Source: Escherichia coli
GTDB taxonomy: Bacteria > Pseudomonadota > Gammaproteobacteria > Enterobacterales > Enterobacteriaceae
Assembly: GCF_003334305.1 (NCBI RefSeq)
Contig: NZ_QOWS01000016.1
Direction: 5' to 3' (one strand)
Length of the DNA stretch: 64,000 nucleotides
Shown: in pieces, positions 3,303-61,566 of the stretch
How the letters are laid out: every line of letters begins with the position of its first letter
Numbering within the stretch: position 1 is the stretch's first letter
Notes under the pieces: generated by a model
Told to the model about the DNA's origin: nothing
Databases searched by the model: none
Seen by the model: the letters and a program-made list of their open reading frames with translations, nothing else
Made by a program: the position numbers and the translations under genes

Positions 3303-3389
3303 TCGCAATCACATTACTGATCATGGTTTTGCCTGCGCTTTTTGCGTAAGCTGTGCCGGTCTTTTTATCGGAAGAGGTTGTACAAAATT

Positions 3390-43633: not shown

Positions 43634-46600
43634 TTGAGCCAGGAATACACTGAAGACAAAGAAGTCACATTGACAAAGTTAAGTAGCGGCCGTCGCCTTC
43701 TGGAAGCGTTGCTGATCCTTATTGTCCTGTTTGCCGTCTGGTTGATGGCTGCCTTACTAAGCTTTAACCCTTCGGACCCCAGCTGGTCGCAAACGGCCTG
43801 GCATGAACCTATCCATAATTTAGGTGGGATGCCCGGTGCGTGGCTGGCAGATACGCTGTTCTTTATTTTTGGCGTGATGGCTTACACCATTCCCGTCATT
43901 ATTGTCGGCGGTTGTTGGTTTGCCTGGCGTCATCAGTCCAGTGACGAATACATTGATTATTTTGCCGTTTCGCTACGCATCATTGGCGTTTTGGCGCTCA
44001 TCCTTACCTCCTGTGGTCTGGCGGCAATCAACGCTGACGATATCTGGTATTTTGCCTCCGGTGGCGTCATTGGCAGCTTACTAAGCACTACGCTACAACC
44101 ACTGCTACACAGTAGCGGGGGAACTATTGCGCTGCTCTGCGTTTGGGCTGCGGGCCTGACGCTGTTCACCGGTTGGTCATGGGTGACCATTGCTGAAAAA
44201 CTCGGCGGCTGGATTTTAAACATTCTCACCTTCGCCAGTAATCGTACCCGTCGCGATGATACCTGGGTCGATGAAGATGAATATGAAGATGACGAAGAGT
44301 ATGAAGATGAAAACCACGGCAAACAGCATGAATCACGCCGTGCCCGTATTCTTCGCGGCGCGCTAGCGCGTCGTAAACGGTTGGCGGAAAAATTCATTAA
44401 TCCGATGGGGCGGCAAACAGACGCTGCGTTGTTCTCCGGTAAGCGGATGGATGATGACGAAGAGATTATCTACACTGCACGCGGTGTGGCTGCCGACCCG
44501 GACGACGTCCTATTTTCGGGCAATCGTGCAACGCAGCCAGAATATGACGAATACGATCCATTATTAAACGGTGCGCCAATTACCGAACCTGTCGCTGTAG
44601 CAGCTGCTGCTACCACGGCGACACAAAGCTGGGCTGCGCCGGTTGAACCTGTGACTCAGACGCCGCCTGTTGCCTCTGTTGATGTTCCACCTTCGCAACC
44701 TACAGTAGCCTGGCAGCCTGTACCGGGTCCACAAACGGGAGAGCCGGTTATTGCTCCTGCACCGGAAGGTTACCCACAGCAGTCACAATATGCGCAGCCT
44801 GCAGTGCAATATAATGAGCCGCTGCAACAACCAGTACAGCCGCAGCAGCCGTATTATGCACCTGCAGCTGAACAACCTGCGCAACAACCTTACTACGCTC
44901 CTGCGGCGGAACAACCTGTTCAGCAACCGTATTACGCCCCTGCGCCAGAACAACCGGTGGCAGGTAACGCCTGGCAAGCCGAAGAGCAGCAATCCACTTT
45001 TGCTCCACAGTCTACATACCAGACTGAGCAAACTTATCAGCAACCAGCCGCTCAGGAGCCGTTGTACCAACAGCCGCAATCCGTTGAACAGCAGCCTGTT
45101 GTGGAGCCTGAACCCGTTGTAGAAGAGACAAAACCCGCGCGTCCGCCGCTTTACTATTTTGAAGAAGTGGAAGAGAAGCGAGCCCGTGAACGTGAACAAC
45201 TTGCGGCCTGGTATCAACCGATTCCAGAACCGGTTAAAGAACCAGAACCGATCAAATCTTCGTTGAAAGCGCCTTCTGTTGCAGCAGTACCTCCAGTAGA
45301 AGCCGCTGCCGCTGTTTCTCCGCTGGCATCTGGCGTGAAAAAAGCGACACTGGCGACGGGGGCTGCCGCAACCGTTGCCGCGCCAGTCTTCAGTCTGGCA
45401 AATAGCGGTGGACCGCGTCCGCAAGTCAAAGAGGGGATTGGCCCGCAGTTGCCACGACCGAAACGTATCCGCGTGCCAACTCGTCGTGAACTGGCGTCTT
45501 ACGGTATTAAGCTGCCCTCACAGCGTGCGGCGGAAGAGAAAGCCCGTGAAGCCCAGCGCAATCAGTATGATTCTGGCGATCAGTATAACGATGATGAAAT
45601 CGATGCGATGCAGCAGGATGAACTGGCACGTCAGTTCGCCCAGACACAGCAGCAACGCTATGGCGAACAGTATCAACATGATGTGCCCGTAAACGCAGAA
45701 GATGCAGATGCTGCGGCAGAGGCTGAACTGGCTCGTCAGTTTGCGCAAACTCAACAACAACGTTATTCCGGCGAACAACCGGCTGGGGCGAATCCGTTCT
45801 CGCTGGATGATTTTGAATTTTCGCCAATGAAAGCGTTGCTGGATGATGGTCCACACGAACCGTTGTTTACGCCAATTGTTGAACCTGTACAGCAGCCGCA
45901 ACAACCGGTTGCACCGCAGCAGCAGTATCAGCAGCCGCAACAACCAGTTCCGCCACAGCAGCAATATCAGCAGCCGCAACAGCCGGTTGCGCCGCAGCCG
46001 CAGTATCAGCAGCCACAACAGCAGGTTGCGCCGCAGCCACAATATCAGCAGCCGCAACAACCGGTTGCGCCACAGCCGCAATATCAGCAGCCGCAACAAC
46101 CAGTTGCGCCGCAGCCGCAGTATCAACAGCCGCAACAACCGGTTGCACCGCAGCAGCAGGATACCCTGCTTCATCCGCTGTTGATGCGTAATGGCGACAG
46201 CCGTCCGTTGCATAAACCGACGACGCCGCTGCCTTCTCTGGATTTGCTGACACCGCCGCCGAGCGAAGTGGAGCCGGTAGATACCTTTGCGCTTGAACAA
46301 ATGGCTCGCCTGGTGGAAGCGCGTCTGGCTGATTTCCGTATTAAAGCCGATGTCGTCAATTACTCTCCGGGGCCGGTTATCACTCGCTTTGAACTTAACC
46401 TGGCTCCTGGCGTAAAAGCGGCGCGCATTTCTAACTTGTCACGGGACCTTGCCCGTTCACTTTCGACGGTGGCGGTGCGTGTCGTTGAAGTTATTCCTGG
46501 CAAACCCTATGTAGGTCTGGAGTTACCAAATAAAAAACGACAAACCGTTTATCTGCGCGAAGTTTTGGATAACGCCAAATTCCGCGATAATCCGTCGCCA

Positions 46601-47701
46601 TTAACCGTGGTGCTGGGTAAAGATATCGCCGGTGAGCCGGTGGTTGCCGATCTGGCGAAAATGCCGCACTTGTTGGTTGCGGGGACTACCGGTTCCGGTA
46701 AATCTGTCGGTGTGAACGCGATGATCCTGAGCATGCTTTATAAAGCACAGCCAGAAGATGTGCGTTTCATCATGATCGACCCGAAAATGCTGGAGCTTTC
46801 GGTTTATGAAGGCATTCCGCATCTGTTAACGGAAGTCGTTACTGATATGAAAGATGCCGCCAACGCGCTGCGCTGGTGTGTTAACGAGATGGAGCGTCGG
46901 TATAAACTGATGTCTGCGCTGGGTGTGCGTAATCTGGCGGGTTATAACGAAAAAATTGCTGAAGCCGATCGCATGATGCGTCCGATTCCAGACCCGTACT
47001 GGAAGCCGGGTGACAGTATGGATGCCCAGCATCCGGTGCTGAAAAAAGAACCATACATTGTGGTGTTGGTTGACGAATTTGCCGACCTGATGATGACGGT
47101 AGGTAAAAAAGTGGAAGAGCTGATAGCACGTCTGGCGCAAAAAGCCCGTGCCGCGGGTATCCACCTCGTACTGGCAACTCAGCGTCCATCGGTTGATGTT
47201 ATTACTGGTCTGATTAAAGCGAATATTCCGACCCGTATCGCCTTTACCGTATCCAGTAAGATTGACTCACGTACCATTCTTGATCAGGCTGGCGCGGAAT
47301 CACTGCTGGGGATGGGGGATATGCTCTACTCTGGGCCGAACTCCACGTTGCCGGTACGTGTCCATGGTGCTTTTGTTCGCGATCAGGAAGTTCATGCCGT
47401 GGTGCAGGACTGGAAAGCGCGTGGTCGCCCACAGTATGTTGATGGCATCACTTCCGACAGTGAAAGCGAAGGTGGCGCGGGCGGTTTCGATGGCGCTGAA
47501 GAACTGGATCCGTTGTTCGATCAGGCGGTGCAGTTTGTCACTGAAAAACGCAAAGCGTCAATTTCTGGCGTACAGCGTCAGTTCCGCATTGGTTATAACC
47601 GTGCAGCGCGTATTATCGAACAGATGGAAGCGCAGGGGATTGTCAGCGAACAGGGGCACAACGGTAATCGTGAAGTGCTGGCCCCACCGCCGTTTGACTA
47701 A
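43634..47701 (+). CDS. ftsK: DNA translocase FtsK
   Basis: 1355-aa ORF, TTG start with GGAGAG RBS; N-terminal TM domain, long Pro/Gln-rich repeat linker, C-terminal AAA motor (GTTGSGKS) and gamma domain. Confidence 0.9.
44843..44959 (+). repeat. 3 x 39-bp in-frame tandem repeat in ftsK linker ([13 protein letters not shown] units)
   Basis: Three near-identical 13-codon units read from sequence and translation. Confidence 0.8.
45890..46159 (+). repeat. 7 x 39-bp in-frame tandem repeat in ftsK linker ([10 protein letters not shown](P/Q)QY units)
   Basis: Seven near-identical 13-codon units; creates spurious ORFs on other frames and on the minus strand. Confidence 0.85.
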
Positions 47702-56042: not shown

Positions 56043-56356
56043 CCTCTTCTCCTTTCGAGAGTCAGTGGTACGTCTGAAATCGGTCAGACGTGATGCATTG
56101 CTCTGAAAGCATAGACGGGAAATATGAGTTTGCTGTGACCATGAAATTTTTCGACTGAACGAAGCGTATGAAATTTGTGTTAGATCAATAAAAACAATCA
56201 GATGAGATTAATCATCTCTTCAGCATTAGCGTTATGAATGAGTAATATAAATCGATAATACCGCCGCTGCGATATGCGCGTATTTTCACCCATTGACAAT
56301 GTTTTTGGCGGTGGCATGATGCGCATGAAATTTGAACTTCCTCACGGTTTTAATTC

Positions 56357-57505: not shown

Positions 57506-57714
57506 ATGAATTCAAGCAGAGTGTGAACTTACTGTTTCACACTCTGCTTTTTTGTTTCTTCTATCTGACTTGCTTTATTCCAAATTTTATTCGTTTAAAA
57601 ATAAAATGTGCAGCAGGTTATAATTTTGCATTTCGCTATTTCCGCACTTCTTATTTGCCGCGCATAATCCCTCGTTTTACAGATGCCCCTTTAATTTTGG
57701 CGAAGGATTTGTCT

Positions 57715-59145
57715 ATGGCTGGGAATGTTCAGGAAAAACAGTTGCGATGGTACAACATTGCGCTGATGTCTTTTATCACTGTCTGGGGTTTTGGCAACGT
57801 TGTTAATAACTATGCCAACCAGGGGCTGGTGGTTGTTTTTTCATGGGTGTTTATCTTTGCACTCTATTTCACACCTTATGCGCTAATTGTTGGTCAGTTA
57901 GGCTCGACCTTCAAAGATGGGAAGGGCGGGGTCAGTACCTGGATTAAACACACGATGGGACCCGGACTGGCTTATCTCGCCGCGTGGACCTACTGGGTGG
58001 TGCATATTCCCTATCTGGCACAAAAACCCCAGGCAATTCTGATTGCGCTCGGTTGGGCGATGAAAGGCGACGGTTCGCTAATCAAAGAATATTCAGTCGT
58101 AGCGTTACAGGGGTTAACGCTGGTGCTGTTTATCTTCTTTATGTGGGTTGCTTCACGCGGTATGAAATCGCTGAAAATCGTCGGTTCTGTGGCAGGGATT
58201 GCGATGTTTGTTATGTCGCTCCTGTATGTGGCGATGGCGGTAACCGCGCCTGCGATTACTGAAGTGCATATTGCGACCACAAACATTACCTGGGAAACGT
58301 TCATTCCTCATATCGACTTTACCTACATTACCACTATTTCAATGCTGGTTTTCGCGGTTGGCGGAGCAGAGAAGATTTCTCCTTACGTTAATCAAACGCG
58401 CAACCCAGGAAAAGAATTTCCAAAAGGGATGCTATGCCTGGCGGTGATGGTTGCGGTTTGTGCCATTCTGGGCTCACTGGCGATGGGGATGATGTTTGAC
58501 TCGCGTAATATCCCGGATGACTTAATGACTAACGGTCAATATTACGCCTTTCAGAAGCTGGGCGAGTATTACAACATGGGTAATACTTTAATGGTGATTT
58601 ACGCCATTGCGAATACCCTGGGACAAGTAGCTGCGCTGGTATTCTCGATTGATGCCCCGCTTAAAGTGCTATTAGGTGATGCTGACAGCAAATATATTCC
58701 AGCCAGTTTATGTCGTACCAACGCTTCTGGTACGCCCGTTAATGGCTATTTTCTGACCCTGGTGCTGGTGGCAATTCTGATTATGCTGCCGACTCTCGGC
58801 ATCGGTGATATGAACAATCTCTATAAATGGCTGTTGAATCTTAACTCGGTAGTGATGCCGCTGCGTTATTTATGGGTATTTGTTGCATTTATTGCAGTCG
58901 TTCGCCTGGCGCAGAAATATAAACCAGAATATGTCTTTATTCGTAATAAGCCTCTGGCAATGACCGTCGGGATTTGGTGTTTTGCCTTTACCGCCTTTGC
59001 CTGCTTGACGGGGATCTTCCCGAAAATGGAAGCCTTCACTGCAGAGTGGACCTTCCAGTTGGCGCTGAATGTTGCAACGCCGTTTGTGCTGGTAGGATTA
59101 GGACTGATTTTCCCGCTGCTGGCGCGTAAAGCGAATAGTAAATAA
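57715..59145 (+). CDS. ycaM: APC-family amino acid transporter YcaM
   Basis: ORF track 57523..59145 trimmed to ATG at 57715 (MAGNVQEKQLRWYNIALMSF...), 476 aa; the upstream extension is AT-rich promoter-like sequence. Confidence 0.8.
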   Translation: MAGNVQEKQLRWYNIALMSFITVWGFGNVVNNYANQGLVVVFSWVFIFALYFTPYALIVGQLGSTFKDGKGGVSTWIKHTMGPGLAYLAAWTYWVVHIPYLAQKPQAILIALGWAMKGDGSLIKEYSVVALQGLTLVLFIFFMWVASRGMKSLKIVGSVAGIAMFVMSLLYVAMAVTAPAITEVHIATTNITWETFIPHIDFTYITTISMLVFAVGGAEKISPYVNQTRNPGKEFPKGMLCLAVMVAVCAILGSLAMGMMFDSRNIPDDLMTNGQYYAFQKLGEYYNMGNTLMVIYAIANTLGQVAALVFSIDAPLKVLLGDADSKYIPASLCRTNASGTPVNGYFLTLVLVAILIMLPTLGIGDMNNLYKWLLNLNSVVMPLRYLWVFVAFIAVVRLAQKYKPEYVFIRNKPLAMTVGIWCFAFTAFACLTGIFPKMEAFTAEWTFQLALNVATPFVLVGLGLIFPLLARKANSK

Positions 59146-60054
59146 TTATTGTGGTCGGTGACGCTGACTCTGGCAGATCTGACCCGTTTTTACATAATCG
59201 AGAAATGCGCGCAAGCCGCAGGACATATACTGGCGGTTTGGATAATAGATCTGGAAGCCTGGACGCTCTGTGCTCCAGTCTTCCAGTACACATTCTAAAC
59301 GACCAGTATCAAGGTACTCCTTGATCTGTTCATAGAGCAGATACCCGATACCAGCACCCATCAAAACGGCCTCCAGTTCAGCATCAACATCATCCAGAAT
59401 GATATTTCCTGCGACAGCAATTTCCAGCTCCTTTGCAAATTGCCAGTGGAAAGGTTTGCCGCTGGGATAACGAAAAACAACACATTGATGATTAAGCAGA
59501 TCATGAGGATGGCGGGGTTTGCCATATCTTGCAAAGTACTCTGGCGTTGCTGCTACACATAATTTCACTGGCGGGCCGATCGCCACGCTGATCATATCTT
59601 TTTCGACGATGCCACTAAGTCGAACGCCAGCGTCAAAGCCCTGTTGGACGATATCGACAAGAGAATCGTCAGTTGTGAGCTCGACTTTAATATCAGGATA
59701 TTCACGTGTGAAACCAACCAGTAAAGGCATTAAAAATATACGTGCAGCTACCCGGGCGGCATTGATTTTGAGCGTTCCTGTCGGTGTCAGACGAAAATCA
59801 TTCATCTCATCTAACATGATCTGAATTTCGTCGAAAGCTGGGCGCAATCGTTCATAGAGATTAGAACCCGCTTCCGTTAACGATACGCTTCGGGTTGTCC
59901 GATTGAATAAGCGAATTTTAAGACGTTGTTCCAGTGTTTTAATACTATGGCTAATGGCGGACGAGGATAAGCCTAATTCATCGCCCGCTGCACGAAAGCT
60001 TTGATTACGGGCCACGGCAAAGAAAGTGGCAAAGTCAGACATATTCATCCGCAT
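59146..60054 (-). CDS. ycaN: LysR-type transcriptional regulator YcaN
   Basis: 302-aa ORF with N-terminal HTH (FRAAGDELGLSSSAISHSIKTLEQRL) and LysR substrate-binding domain; divergent from ycaK. Confidence 0.85.
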   Translation of the reverse strand: MRMNMSDFATFFAVARNQSFRAAGDELGLSSSAISHSIKTLEQRLKIRLFNRTTRSVSLTEAGSNLYERLRPAFDEIQIMLDEMNDFRLTPTGTLKINAARVAARIFLMPLLVGFTREYPDIKVELTTDDSLVDIVQQGFDAGVRLSGIVEKDMISVAIGPPVKLCVAATPEYFARYGKPRHPHDLLNHQCVVFRYPSGKPFHWQFAKELEIAVAGNIILDDVDAELEAVLMGAGIGYLLYEQIKEYLDTGRLECVLEDWSTERPGFQIYYPNRQYMSCGLRAFLDYVKTGQICQSQRHRPQ

Positions 60055-60066
60055 TAGTGAAAATCC

Positions 60067-60085
60067 TTCATTAACTCATCCTGAA
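60067..60085. promoter_or_regulatory. LysR-type T-N11-A box in the ycaN-ycaK divergent region
   Basis: TTCA-N11-TGAA interrupted dyad located 13 bp from the ycaN start. Confidence 0.3.
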
Positions 60086-60153
60086 TCATCACGTTTACAG
60101 GATTATGCCGCCTGCGTAAAGTGCGCTCCAGAACTTAACGTGGAGGTAAAATT

Positions 60154-60744
60154 ATGCAGTCTGAACGTATTTATTTGGTATGGGCCCATCCTCGTCATGA
60201 TTCATTGACCGCACATATTGCTGATGCGATCCATCAGCGGGCAATGGAGCGGAAAATACAGGTGACGGAACTCGATTTATATCGGCGTAATTTCAACCCG
60301 GTGATGACGTCGGAAGATGAACCAGACTGGAAGAATATGGATAAACGTTATTCTCCAGAGGTTCATCAGCTTTATTCAGAGCTGCTTGAGCATGACACGT
60401 TAGTGGTGGTTTTTCCTCTCTGGTGGTACAGCTTCCCGGCAATGCTAAAAGGATATATTGACAGAGTATGGAATAATGGGCTGGCTTATGGAGATGGGCA
60501 CAAATTACCATTCAATAAAGTTCGTTGGGTGGCGCTGGTTGGAGGAGACAAAGAATCATTTGTCCAGATGGGCTGGGAAAAAAATATAAGCGATTATTTA
60601 AAAAATATGTGCAGTTATCTTGGTATTGAAGATGCCGATGTCACTTTCTTGTGTAATACAGTGGTATTCGATGGGGAAGAACTTCACGCGAGCTATTATC
60701 AGTCGTTATTATCTCAGGTACGGGATATGGTAGATGCACTATAA
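60154..60744 (+). CDS. ycaK: Flavodoxin-fold NAD(P)H:quinone oxidoreductase-like protein YcaK
   Basis: 196-aa ORF with GGAGG RBS; resembles MdaB/KefF-type NAD(P)H dehydrogenases. Confidence 0.8.
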   Translation: MQSERIYLVWAHPRHDSLTAHIADAIHQRAMERKIQVTELDLYRRNFNPVMTSEDEPDWKNMDKRYSPEVHQLYSELLEHDTLVVVFPLWWYSFPAMLKGYIDRVWNNGLAYGDGHKLPFNKVRWVALVGGDKESFVQMGWEKNISDYLKNMCSYLGIEDADVTFLCNTVVFDGEELHASYYQSLLSQVRDMVDAL

Positions 60745-60825
60745 GATGTGTTAAAAACGCTGTAGCAGAATGAAGCGCGGAATAAAAAAGCGGCAACTCA
60801 ATAAAGTTGCCGCTTTACGGGGAAA

Positions 60826-61566
60826 TTAGAACATTACCTTATGACCGTACTGCTCAAGAATGCCTTTCACGCGTTCCATGGTCTCTTTCTTCGGTGGTTT
60901 AACACCGTCGAGTTTGTACTCTTCACCCATTGCCACCCATTTGTGTTTGCCCAGCTCGTGGTAGGGGAGAAGCTCGATTTTCTCAACGTTGCCCATATCA
61001 CGGGTAAATTCACCGAGGCGATGCGCTGAATCGTCATCGTCAGACCAGCCTGGGACAACAACGTAGCGGATCCACACCTTCACATTTTTGTTCGCCAGAT
61101 ATTTGGCGAACTCCAGCGTGCGGTGATTGGAAACTCCAACCAGATTTTGGTGGATCTCGTCGTTCATCTGTTTGAGATCGAGCATTACCAGGTCGGTTAC
61201 TTCCAGCAGTTCATCAATCACCGGATCGTAACGACGAACAAAACCGTTGGTGTCCAGACAGGTATGAATGCCTTCTTTTTTGCAGGCGCGGAACCAGTCA
61301 CGAACAAACTCAGCTTGTAGGATTGCCTCACCGCCGGATGCGGTAACGCCGCCGCCGGAAGCGTTCATAAAGTGGCGATAGGTCACCACCTCTTTCATTA
61401 AATCTTCAACGGTAACTTCTTTACCGCCATGCGTATCCCAGGTGTCGCGGTTATGACAATACAGGCAGCGCATCAGGCAGCCCTGGAAAAAGGTGATAAA
61501 GCGAATACCTGGGCCGTCTACGGTTCCACAGGATTCAAAGGAGTGAATGCGACCAATAACTGACAT
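60826..61566 (-). CDS. pflA: Pyruvate formate-lyase activating enzyme PflA (radical SAM)
   Basis: ORF track 60826..61593 trimmed to ATG at 61566 ([20 protein letters not shown]...), 246 aa; CxxxCxxC radical-SAM motif ([10 protein letters not shown]). Confidence 0.9.

Follow-up and report, generated by a model that had tools for sequence, protein, structure and literature searches.

The window analysed here is a stretch of 64,000 nucleotides of Escherichia coli DNA, in which the genes ycaN and ycaK are read away from each other on the two sides of a short control region (Table 1). Its section from 59000 to 60900 is 100% identical to several RefSeq E. coli genomes, where ycaM, ycaN, ycaK and pflA are the annotated genes. 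An earlier note on this DNA had described ycaN as a LysR-type regulator and ycaK as a flavodoxin-fold NAD(P)H oxidoreductase-like gene, divergently transcribed across 99 bp. Both descriptions are confirmed: Pfam, the NCBIfam family NF007280 and the RefSeq names agree on the two genes, and the open reading frames leave a gap of exactly this length between them.

Table 1. Features of the ycaN-ycaK locus, in window coordinates; positions with a minus sign are relative to the predicted ycaK transcription start.
Feature	Position	Strand	Basis or remark
ycaN, LysR-type transcriptional regulator, 302 aa	59146-60054	minus	ORF, Pfam, RefSeq name
ycaK, flavodoxin-fold NAD(P)H oxidoreductase, 196 aa	60154-60744	plus	ORF, NF007280, Flavodoxin_2
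Divergent control region ycaN/ycaK, 99 bp	60055-60153		between both start codons
Proposed YcaN recognition site, dyad TTAGTGAA-N5-TTCATTAA	60054-60074		7/8 symmetric pairs
Core T-N11-A box TGAAAATCCTTCA (TGAA-N5-TTCA)	60058-60070		inside the 21-bp dyad
Earlier dyad TTCA-N11-TGAA, TTCATTAACTCATCCTGAA	60067-60085		left arm in conserved box, right arm lineage-specific
Second conserved block	60078-60086		ATCCTGAAT in E. coli, ATCTCAAAT in most others
Inverted repeat ATCCTG-N14-CAGGAT	60078-60103		centre near -39; E. coli and Pseudocitrobacter only
Predicted ycaK -35, TTTACA	60094-60099	plus	consensus scan
Candidate ycaN -10, CATAAT (GATAAT in most species)	60102-60107	minus	A54, T55 invariant
Predicted ycaK -10, TAAAGT	60117-60122	plus	consensus scan; 17-bp spacer to -35
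ycaK Shine-Dalgarno, GGAGG	60142-60146	plus	7 nt before ATG, read from sequence

Regarding the products, YcaN has the N-terminal winged helix-turn-helix of the LysR type (HTH_1, PF00126, residues 7-63, E-value 2.2e-20 in Pfam) followed by the C-terminal substrate domain (LysR_substrate, PF03466, residues 91-290, E-value 8.8e-34), and its length agrees with the size of about 300 amino acids expected of such regulators. Its start codon, the ATG at 60054-60052, is kept in 27 of the 28 loci that we compared. YcaK matches Flavodoxin_2 in Pfam (E-value 4e-40) and, over residues 1-195, the family NF007280/PRK09739 'NAD(P)H oxidoreductase' with 353.5 bits; this family is an equivalog with a curated cut-off of 162 bits, and YcaK is a member of it. 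Among the PDB matches, KefF and NQO1/NQO2-type NAD(P)H quinone reductases are the nearest solved structures, and these matches include no structure of YcaK or YcaN itself. Judging from its matches, YcaK would be an NQO1/NQO2-like flavoprotein and is a predicted reductase. Oxidoreductase screening libraries include it, and no physiological substrate was found in the literature searched.

Some observations concern the surroundings of the pair. The gene ycaN (minus strand) is read towards ycaM (plus strand), and at 59145-59146 the two stop codons touch, with no base between the genes. Further away, a 39-bp unit is repeated in tandem at 45890-46159 (6.9 copies, 88% match, consensus CAGCAGCCGCAACAACCGGTTGCGCCGCAGCCGCAGTAT) inside an open reading frame of 1355 amino acids (43634-47701), which we take to be ftsK; the repeat would presumably encode a proline/glutamine-rich linker. 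The spacer between the convergent genes ycaK and pflA (60745-60825) contains a hairpin, GCGGCAACT...AGTTGCCGC. A study based on RIL-seq reported 'ycaK.3UTR' as an RNA partner of the candidate small RNA AceK-int (PMC8175672).

For the comparison with other bacteria, 25 YcaK homologues were aligned, one genome per bacterial species was scanned, 80 loci were fetched and tblastn was run with YcaN. All of the 24 proteobacterial loci with a YcaK of at least 44% identity carry a divergent YcaN orthologue (44-75% identity), the start of which lies 97-156 bp upstream on the opposite strand. These loci come from Enterobacterales, Caballeronia, Janthinobacterium, Pseudomonas, Billgrantia and Chelativorans, and the clustering of all flanking open reading frames left ycaN and ycaK as the sole genes common to them. 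The gap is 99 bp in all three closer relatives obtained by exact-protein look-up; one of them, Pseudocitrobacter, also shares with E. coli the position of the pair between ycaD and pflA. Among the more distant loci, where the YcaK identity does not exceed 46% and which come mainly from Firmicutes and Actinobacteria, with a few from Proteobacteria, tblastn detected no YcaN orthologue, the exceptions being two weak LysR-family matches in non-divergent positions.

The neighbours of the YcaK homologues in Firmicutes and Actinobacteria, which we named by eye from their N-terminal sequences, are heterogeneous and include an HxlR-like regulator (one locus) and zinc-dehydrogenase-like genes (two Streptomyces loci); in Edwardsiella the neighbour, named in the same way, is a NemA-like reductase. 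We also considered ycaM as a part of the module and rejected it, as tblastn finds it in the E. coli loci and Escherichia only, it is convergent with ycaN and it survives the deletion of ycaN-ycaK. When the same genomes (L003-L024) are compared with E. coli, the identity is 57-74% for YcaN and 49-61% for YcaK, the regulator being consistently the more conserved of the two. Caballeronia, a betaproteobacterium, holds a copy of the enterobacterial type (YcaN 72%), which suggests a horizontal transfer of the pair.

Within E. coli, both genes are present in about 3321-3328 of the 5426 complete genomes and around 39% lack both of them; ycaM is present in about 4372 of the 5426. We compared the alleles of L001 (NZ_CP028644.1) and L002 (NZ_CP069589.1) with the section 57556-60783 of the window. 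In the deletion allele, 59259-60769 is replaced by around 40 unrelated bases and ycaM is kept, a loss that takes ycaK, the control region and most of ycaN at once. The other allele lacks the whole of 57556-60783, which brings the ycaD terminator almost next to that of pflA. Among the 3328 E. coli genomes that carry the control region, 3327 are at least 99% identical over 60030-60180.

The intergenic alignment comprised the 17 species without large gaps, and window coordinates are obtained by adding 60051 to the column number. As the neutral reference we took the four-fold degenerate third positions under invariant amino acids of the flanking genes, where the majority fraction was 0.53-0.58 and none of the 62 sites was invariant. 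The mean majority fraction of columns 4-71 was 0.84, with 22 of the 68 columns invariant, and that of columns 72-105, the ycaK leader, was 0.54, with no invariant column. Thus, the right ~34 bp evolve at the neutral rate except in the Shine-Dalgarno region, where a purine-rich GAG or GGAG is kept. Given that the proteins are 49-74% identical, the silent sites are saturated and therefore the left two-thirds of the region are held by selection. As judged from this alignment, strong purifying selection acts on the control region, and the invariant columns are the arms of a dyad together with the key positions of the -35 and -10 hexamers. All 99 bp are also 100% identical in two metagenomic relatives (L083 and L085) whose YcaK is only 87-90% identical.

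The dyad in question is the proposed recognition site of Table 1, which overlaps the start codon and the ribosome-binding site of ycaN. Its invariant columns in the 17 species are T4, G6-A10, T17-A19, T21 and A22, and the 21-bp sequence has no other match with up to 2 mismatches in the whole window. In all of the 28 loci, which cover alpha-, beta- and gammaproteobacteria, a T-N11-A box with 3 or 4 of its 4 symmetric pairs intact is separated by exactly 3 nt from the start codon of ycaN. From the box to a -35-like hexamer there are 23 nt in 26 of the 28 loci and 24 nt in the two most distant ones, and the hexamer is followed, with the same layout in the 28 loci, by 17 nt and a -10 of the form TAnnnT. 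The half-sites are TGA...TCA in all the loci except those of Billgrantia and Chelativorans, which have TAA...TTA or TAA. In precisely these two genera the recognition helix of YcaN is SPPAVSL instead of the S(S/P)SA(I/V/M)SH found elsewhere (a change from SPSAISH to SPPAVSL). This co-variation of half-site and recognition helix, which amounts to roughly one evolutionary event, supports the view that YcaN may read the box itself.

As the dyad covers the Shine-Dalgarno and the start codon of ycaN, it could also be read as an RNA hairpin in the leader of the ycaN mRNA that controls translation instead of a DNA site; moreover, at one arm position the variation between T and C would give A-U or G-U pairs on the minus-strand RNA. 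Nevertheless, the consensus fold of the 17 leaders is a stem of only 4 bp (-0.37 kcal/mol, one compensatory change), the arms keep an invariant sequence and do not co-vary, and the Rfam search gave no family match in the intergenic region. The hairpin would also leave unexplained the fixed spacing to the -35 and -10 of ycaK. We therefore rejected it and regard it as highly improbable.

Another site had been proposed before. According to the earlier note the 99 bp hold a TTCA-N11-TGAA dyad, which it calls a T-N11-A box. The string is indeed present, and its left arm (TTCA, 60067-60070) is invariant across species, being the right half of the conserved TGAA-N5-TTCA dyad. However, the two occurrences of the pattern in the window compare with 1.37 expected, and 42 of 100 shuffled sequences hold at least as many. 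We also counted the perfect inverted repeats with 4+4 arms and spacers of 3-15 nt; the region holds 8, the earlier dyad included, the shuffled sequences hold 4.8 +/- 2.6, and at least one is present in 98% of the shuffles of the 99 bp. The geometry does not agree either, because a LysR T-N11-A box measures 13 bp overall (LysR literature), whereas the outer T to A of the earlier dyad span 19 bp and its inner bases are A-N11-T. Finally, the right arm (TGAA, 60082-60085) belongs to the Escherichia/Pseudocitrobacter lineage only, and 15 of the 17 aligned species have other bases there, mostly CAAA.

Consequently, with a count at the level of chance, the wrong geometry and no conservation, the operator proposed earlier is not supported, and the dyad cannot be called a T-N11-A box. 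Could it be the recognition site of YcaN all the same? Its right arm falls within a conserved block. Pseudocitrobacter, with a YcaK 67% identical to that of E. coli, has the same arm, which could therefore be a secondary half-site in that lineage. Nevertheless, the arm differs in most species despite their near-identical YcaN recognition helices, and the string overlaps a dyad that is better and has the right geometry. We thus find it quite unlikely that the earlier dyad is the site. The conserved T-N11-A box starts 9 bp further left and has only the TTCA arm in common with the earlier dyad.

Between the conserved box and the -35 there is a second conserved block, at about -52 to -44, in which A27, T28 and A34 are invariant and A32 and T35 reach 94%. 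The E. coli form of this block is found only in Escherichia and Pseudocitrobacter, and the other species have the alternative form of Table 1 or a similar one; the right arm of the earlier dyad is contained in it. The block is a candidate activation site, a role that we infer from its position and conservation. The inverted repeat ATCCTG-N14-CAGGAT, which begins in the same block, is absent from most of the other aligned species and is made by the same lineage-specific bases as the right arm. Inspection of the 17-species alignment and of the 28-locus table revealed neither a second conserved symmetric T-N11-A site, including at a distance of 15 bp, nor a symmetric activation site conserved across species.

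Regarding the promoters, the consensus scan and the invariant columns independently give the same promoter-like site for ycaK. Its hexamers match the sigma-70 consensus at 9 of 12 positions and their spacer is within the 16-18 bp of such promoters. In the 17 species, T43, T44, A46 and C47 of the -35 are invariant and A48 reaches 94%, and in the -10 the invariant positions T66, A67 and T71 are those of TAnnnT. The predicted transcription start of ycaK would be at about 60129-60130, around 7 nt past the -10, which would place the centre of the dyad (60064) at about -65.5. In LysR regulators the recognition site is usually near -65 and the activation sites are near -35 (LysR literature); with reference to the predicted start, a dyad-symmetric T-N11-A box near -65 is what we find. 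The position of the box, together with the conserved sequence adjoining the -35, matches this published layout. For ycaN, the candidate -10 sits within the spacer of the ycaK promoter, and no conserved -35 was found in the aligned control regions, so the assignment of a ycaN promoter is tentative; its predicted transcription start would be near 60095.

Taken together, gene content and site layout argue that ycaN-ycaK is a canonical LysR module of two genes, in which the regulator most likely controls the adjacent reductase gene. We consider it probable that YcaN binds the conserved T-N11-A dyad at 60054-60074 and controls ycaK from there. In the mechanism that we propose, YcaN, as a dimer of its oligomer, would bind TTAGTGAA-N5-TTCATTAA around 65 bp upstream of the predicted ycaK start and would make weaker contacts with the block at 60078-60086 and the surroundings of the -35 hexamer. 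A co-inducer would shift these downstream contacts, so that RNA polymerase could use the weak TTTACA-17-TAAAGT promoter and ycaK would be transcribed. The most plausible co-inducers would be quinone-like compounds, electrophiles or the products of their action. The same binding would repress ycaN, because the site covers its start codon and its ribosome-binding site and adjoins its candidate -10.

The earlier note had seen in this arrangement a LysR regulator and its target gene. The comparative part of the evidence, which consists of the co-inheritance, the selection and the layout, agrees with this claim, but published ChIP-exo lists no YcaN site at this locus and the text of a published RNA-seq study does not name ycaK. 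In the ChIP-exo experiment, which used a chromosomally myc-tagged YcaN in glucose minimal medium, six weak sites were reported (signal/noise 1.06-4.45), near cspE, ynjB, yobF, ung, rho and yihQ. There was no site at ycaN-ycaK and none at ycaC or ycaD. Peaks at the own promoter were seen in the same dataset for the LysR regulators YbdO, YfiE and YhjC, and the weak YcaN peaks include sites of several unrelated regulators of that dataset, for example the one at yihQ. The ChIP-exo of YcaN may simply have failed. In the RNA-seq study of a ycaN deletion, the genes that the text names as affected include ycaC, ycaD and focA, and ycaK is not named as one of them; the study also describes a formate phenotype and gives ycaK as a predicted Nac target. 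A review of LysR regulators published in 2024 gives PycaC and PycaD as targets of YcaN.

These data would fit a different account, in which the ycaK of E. coli is not under the control of YcaN, the targets of YcaN lie elsewhere (ycaC, ycaD, focA or more distant genes), Nac or another factor drives ycaK, and the box serves the autoregulation of ycaN only. The altered expression of ycaC, ycaD and focA with the formate phenotype, the prediction of ycaK as a Nac target, the targets listed in the review and the missing ChIP-exo peak at ycaK all speak in its favour. However, a box of the YcaN type is absent from the ycaC-ycaD intergenic region (56043-56356), where we allowed up to 3 mismatches for the 21-mer and up to 1 for the 15-mer. 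Moreover, ycaK is always linked to the box, at a fixed distance and in a fixed phase, whereas in the other species examined ycaC is never linked to ycaN and ycaD is linked only in Pseudocitrobacter. Since ChIP-exo gave no peak at ycaC or ycaD, the effects on these genes would be at best indirect.

For these reasons we gave little weight to ycaC and ycaD as targets, as their intergenic region has no box and ycaC has no linkage elsewhere. The ChIP-exo and RNA-seq results were also weighed lightly, because both experiments were run without any candidate inducer and the weak peaks include sites also listed for unrelated regulators. In our opinion the account with targets elsewhere is unlikely.

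The closest characterised analogue of ycaN-ycaK is CrgA-mdaB of Neisseria meningitidis, the likeness being one of layout and not of orthology. CrgA is an autorepressor and an activator of the divergent NADPH quinone oxidoreductase gene, with induction upon exposure to electrophiles, and its T-N11-A motifs are found between the two genes, beside the -35 of the target and over the promoter of crgA itself. Residues 1-289 of YcaN align over the full length with the CrgA structure 3HHG (E-value 1.3e-30), which places both in the same LysR branch, and ycaN-ycaK shares the divergent arrangement of a regulator of the CrgA branch and a gene for a putative flavodoxin-fold NAD(P)H quinone oxidoreductase. 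There are also clear differences. YcaN is not the orthologue of CrgA, the identity over the alignment being modest, and YcaK matches reductases of the NQO1/NQO2 and KefF types, MdaB not being among its PDB matches. CrgA has two T-N11-A sites 15 bp apart plus octamers, whereas in ycaN-ycaK one symmetric T-N11-A is conserved. Furthermore, for YcaN both binding and induction are predictions from sequence.

The promoters of the BenM/CatM and CbnR type, with a recognition site at about -65, activation sites at about -35 and a sliding-dimer mechanism, offer a second comparison. As in these systems, the regulator of ycaN-ycaK is divergent, a symmetric T-N11-A lies at about -65 from the predicted start of a weak target promoter, and the conserved sequence between box and -35 is less symmetric. 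Nevertheless, the half-sites are TGAA/TTCA instead of ATAC/GTAT, the activation sites are not delineable by symmetry, and the recognition site abuts the start codon of the regulator, which is unusually close. Regarding the E. coli paralogues, YafC (160 bits) and AaeR (121 bits) are among the best NCBIfam matches of YcaN over its full length. The curated cut-offs, 470 and 425 respectively, are far higher, and YcaN therefore belongs to a separate orthologous group that has a conserved partner gene of its own.

As the earlier note had stated, the inducer and the physiological role are not established, and the 2024 review lists function and ligand of YcaN as unknown. YcaN belongs to those LysR regulators of E. 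coli that still lack an assigned function and ligand, and the flavoprotein YcaK lacks an assigned substrate. The conserved operator and promoter define precise mutations to be tested in gel-shift and reporter work, and they suggest that the reported targets ycaC and ycaD are indirect. Once the inducer is found, this compact unit of regulator, operator and promoter could be a chassis for a biosensor. The pair fills a gap in the regulatory network of E. coli and leaves the understanding of LysR regulation unchanged.

A wider reading, which we put forward as a possibility that we would not yet favour, is that ycaN-ycaK might be a horizontally mobile detoxification cassette of two genes that answers a specific quinone-like or electrophilic compound, with an operator-promoter of around 70 bp that is nearly unchanged in gamma- and betaproteobacteria and has the same architecture in alphaproteobacteria. 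If this were true, the published targets ycaC and ycaD would be indirect, and the presence of the pair in around 61% of the E. coli genomes and its absence from around 39% would mark an ecological difference between E. coli lineages.
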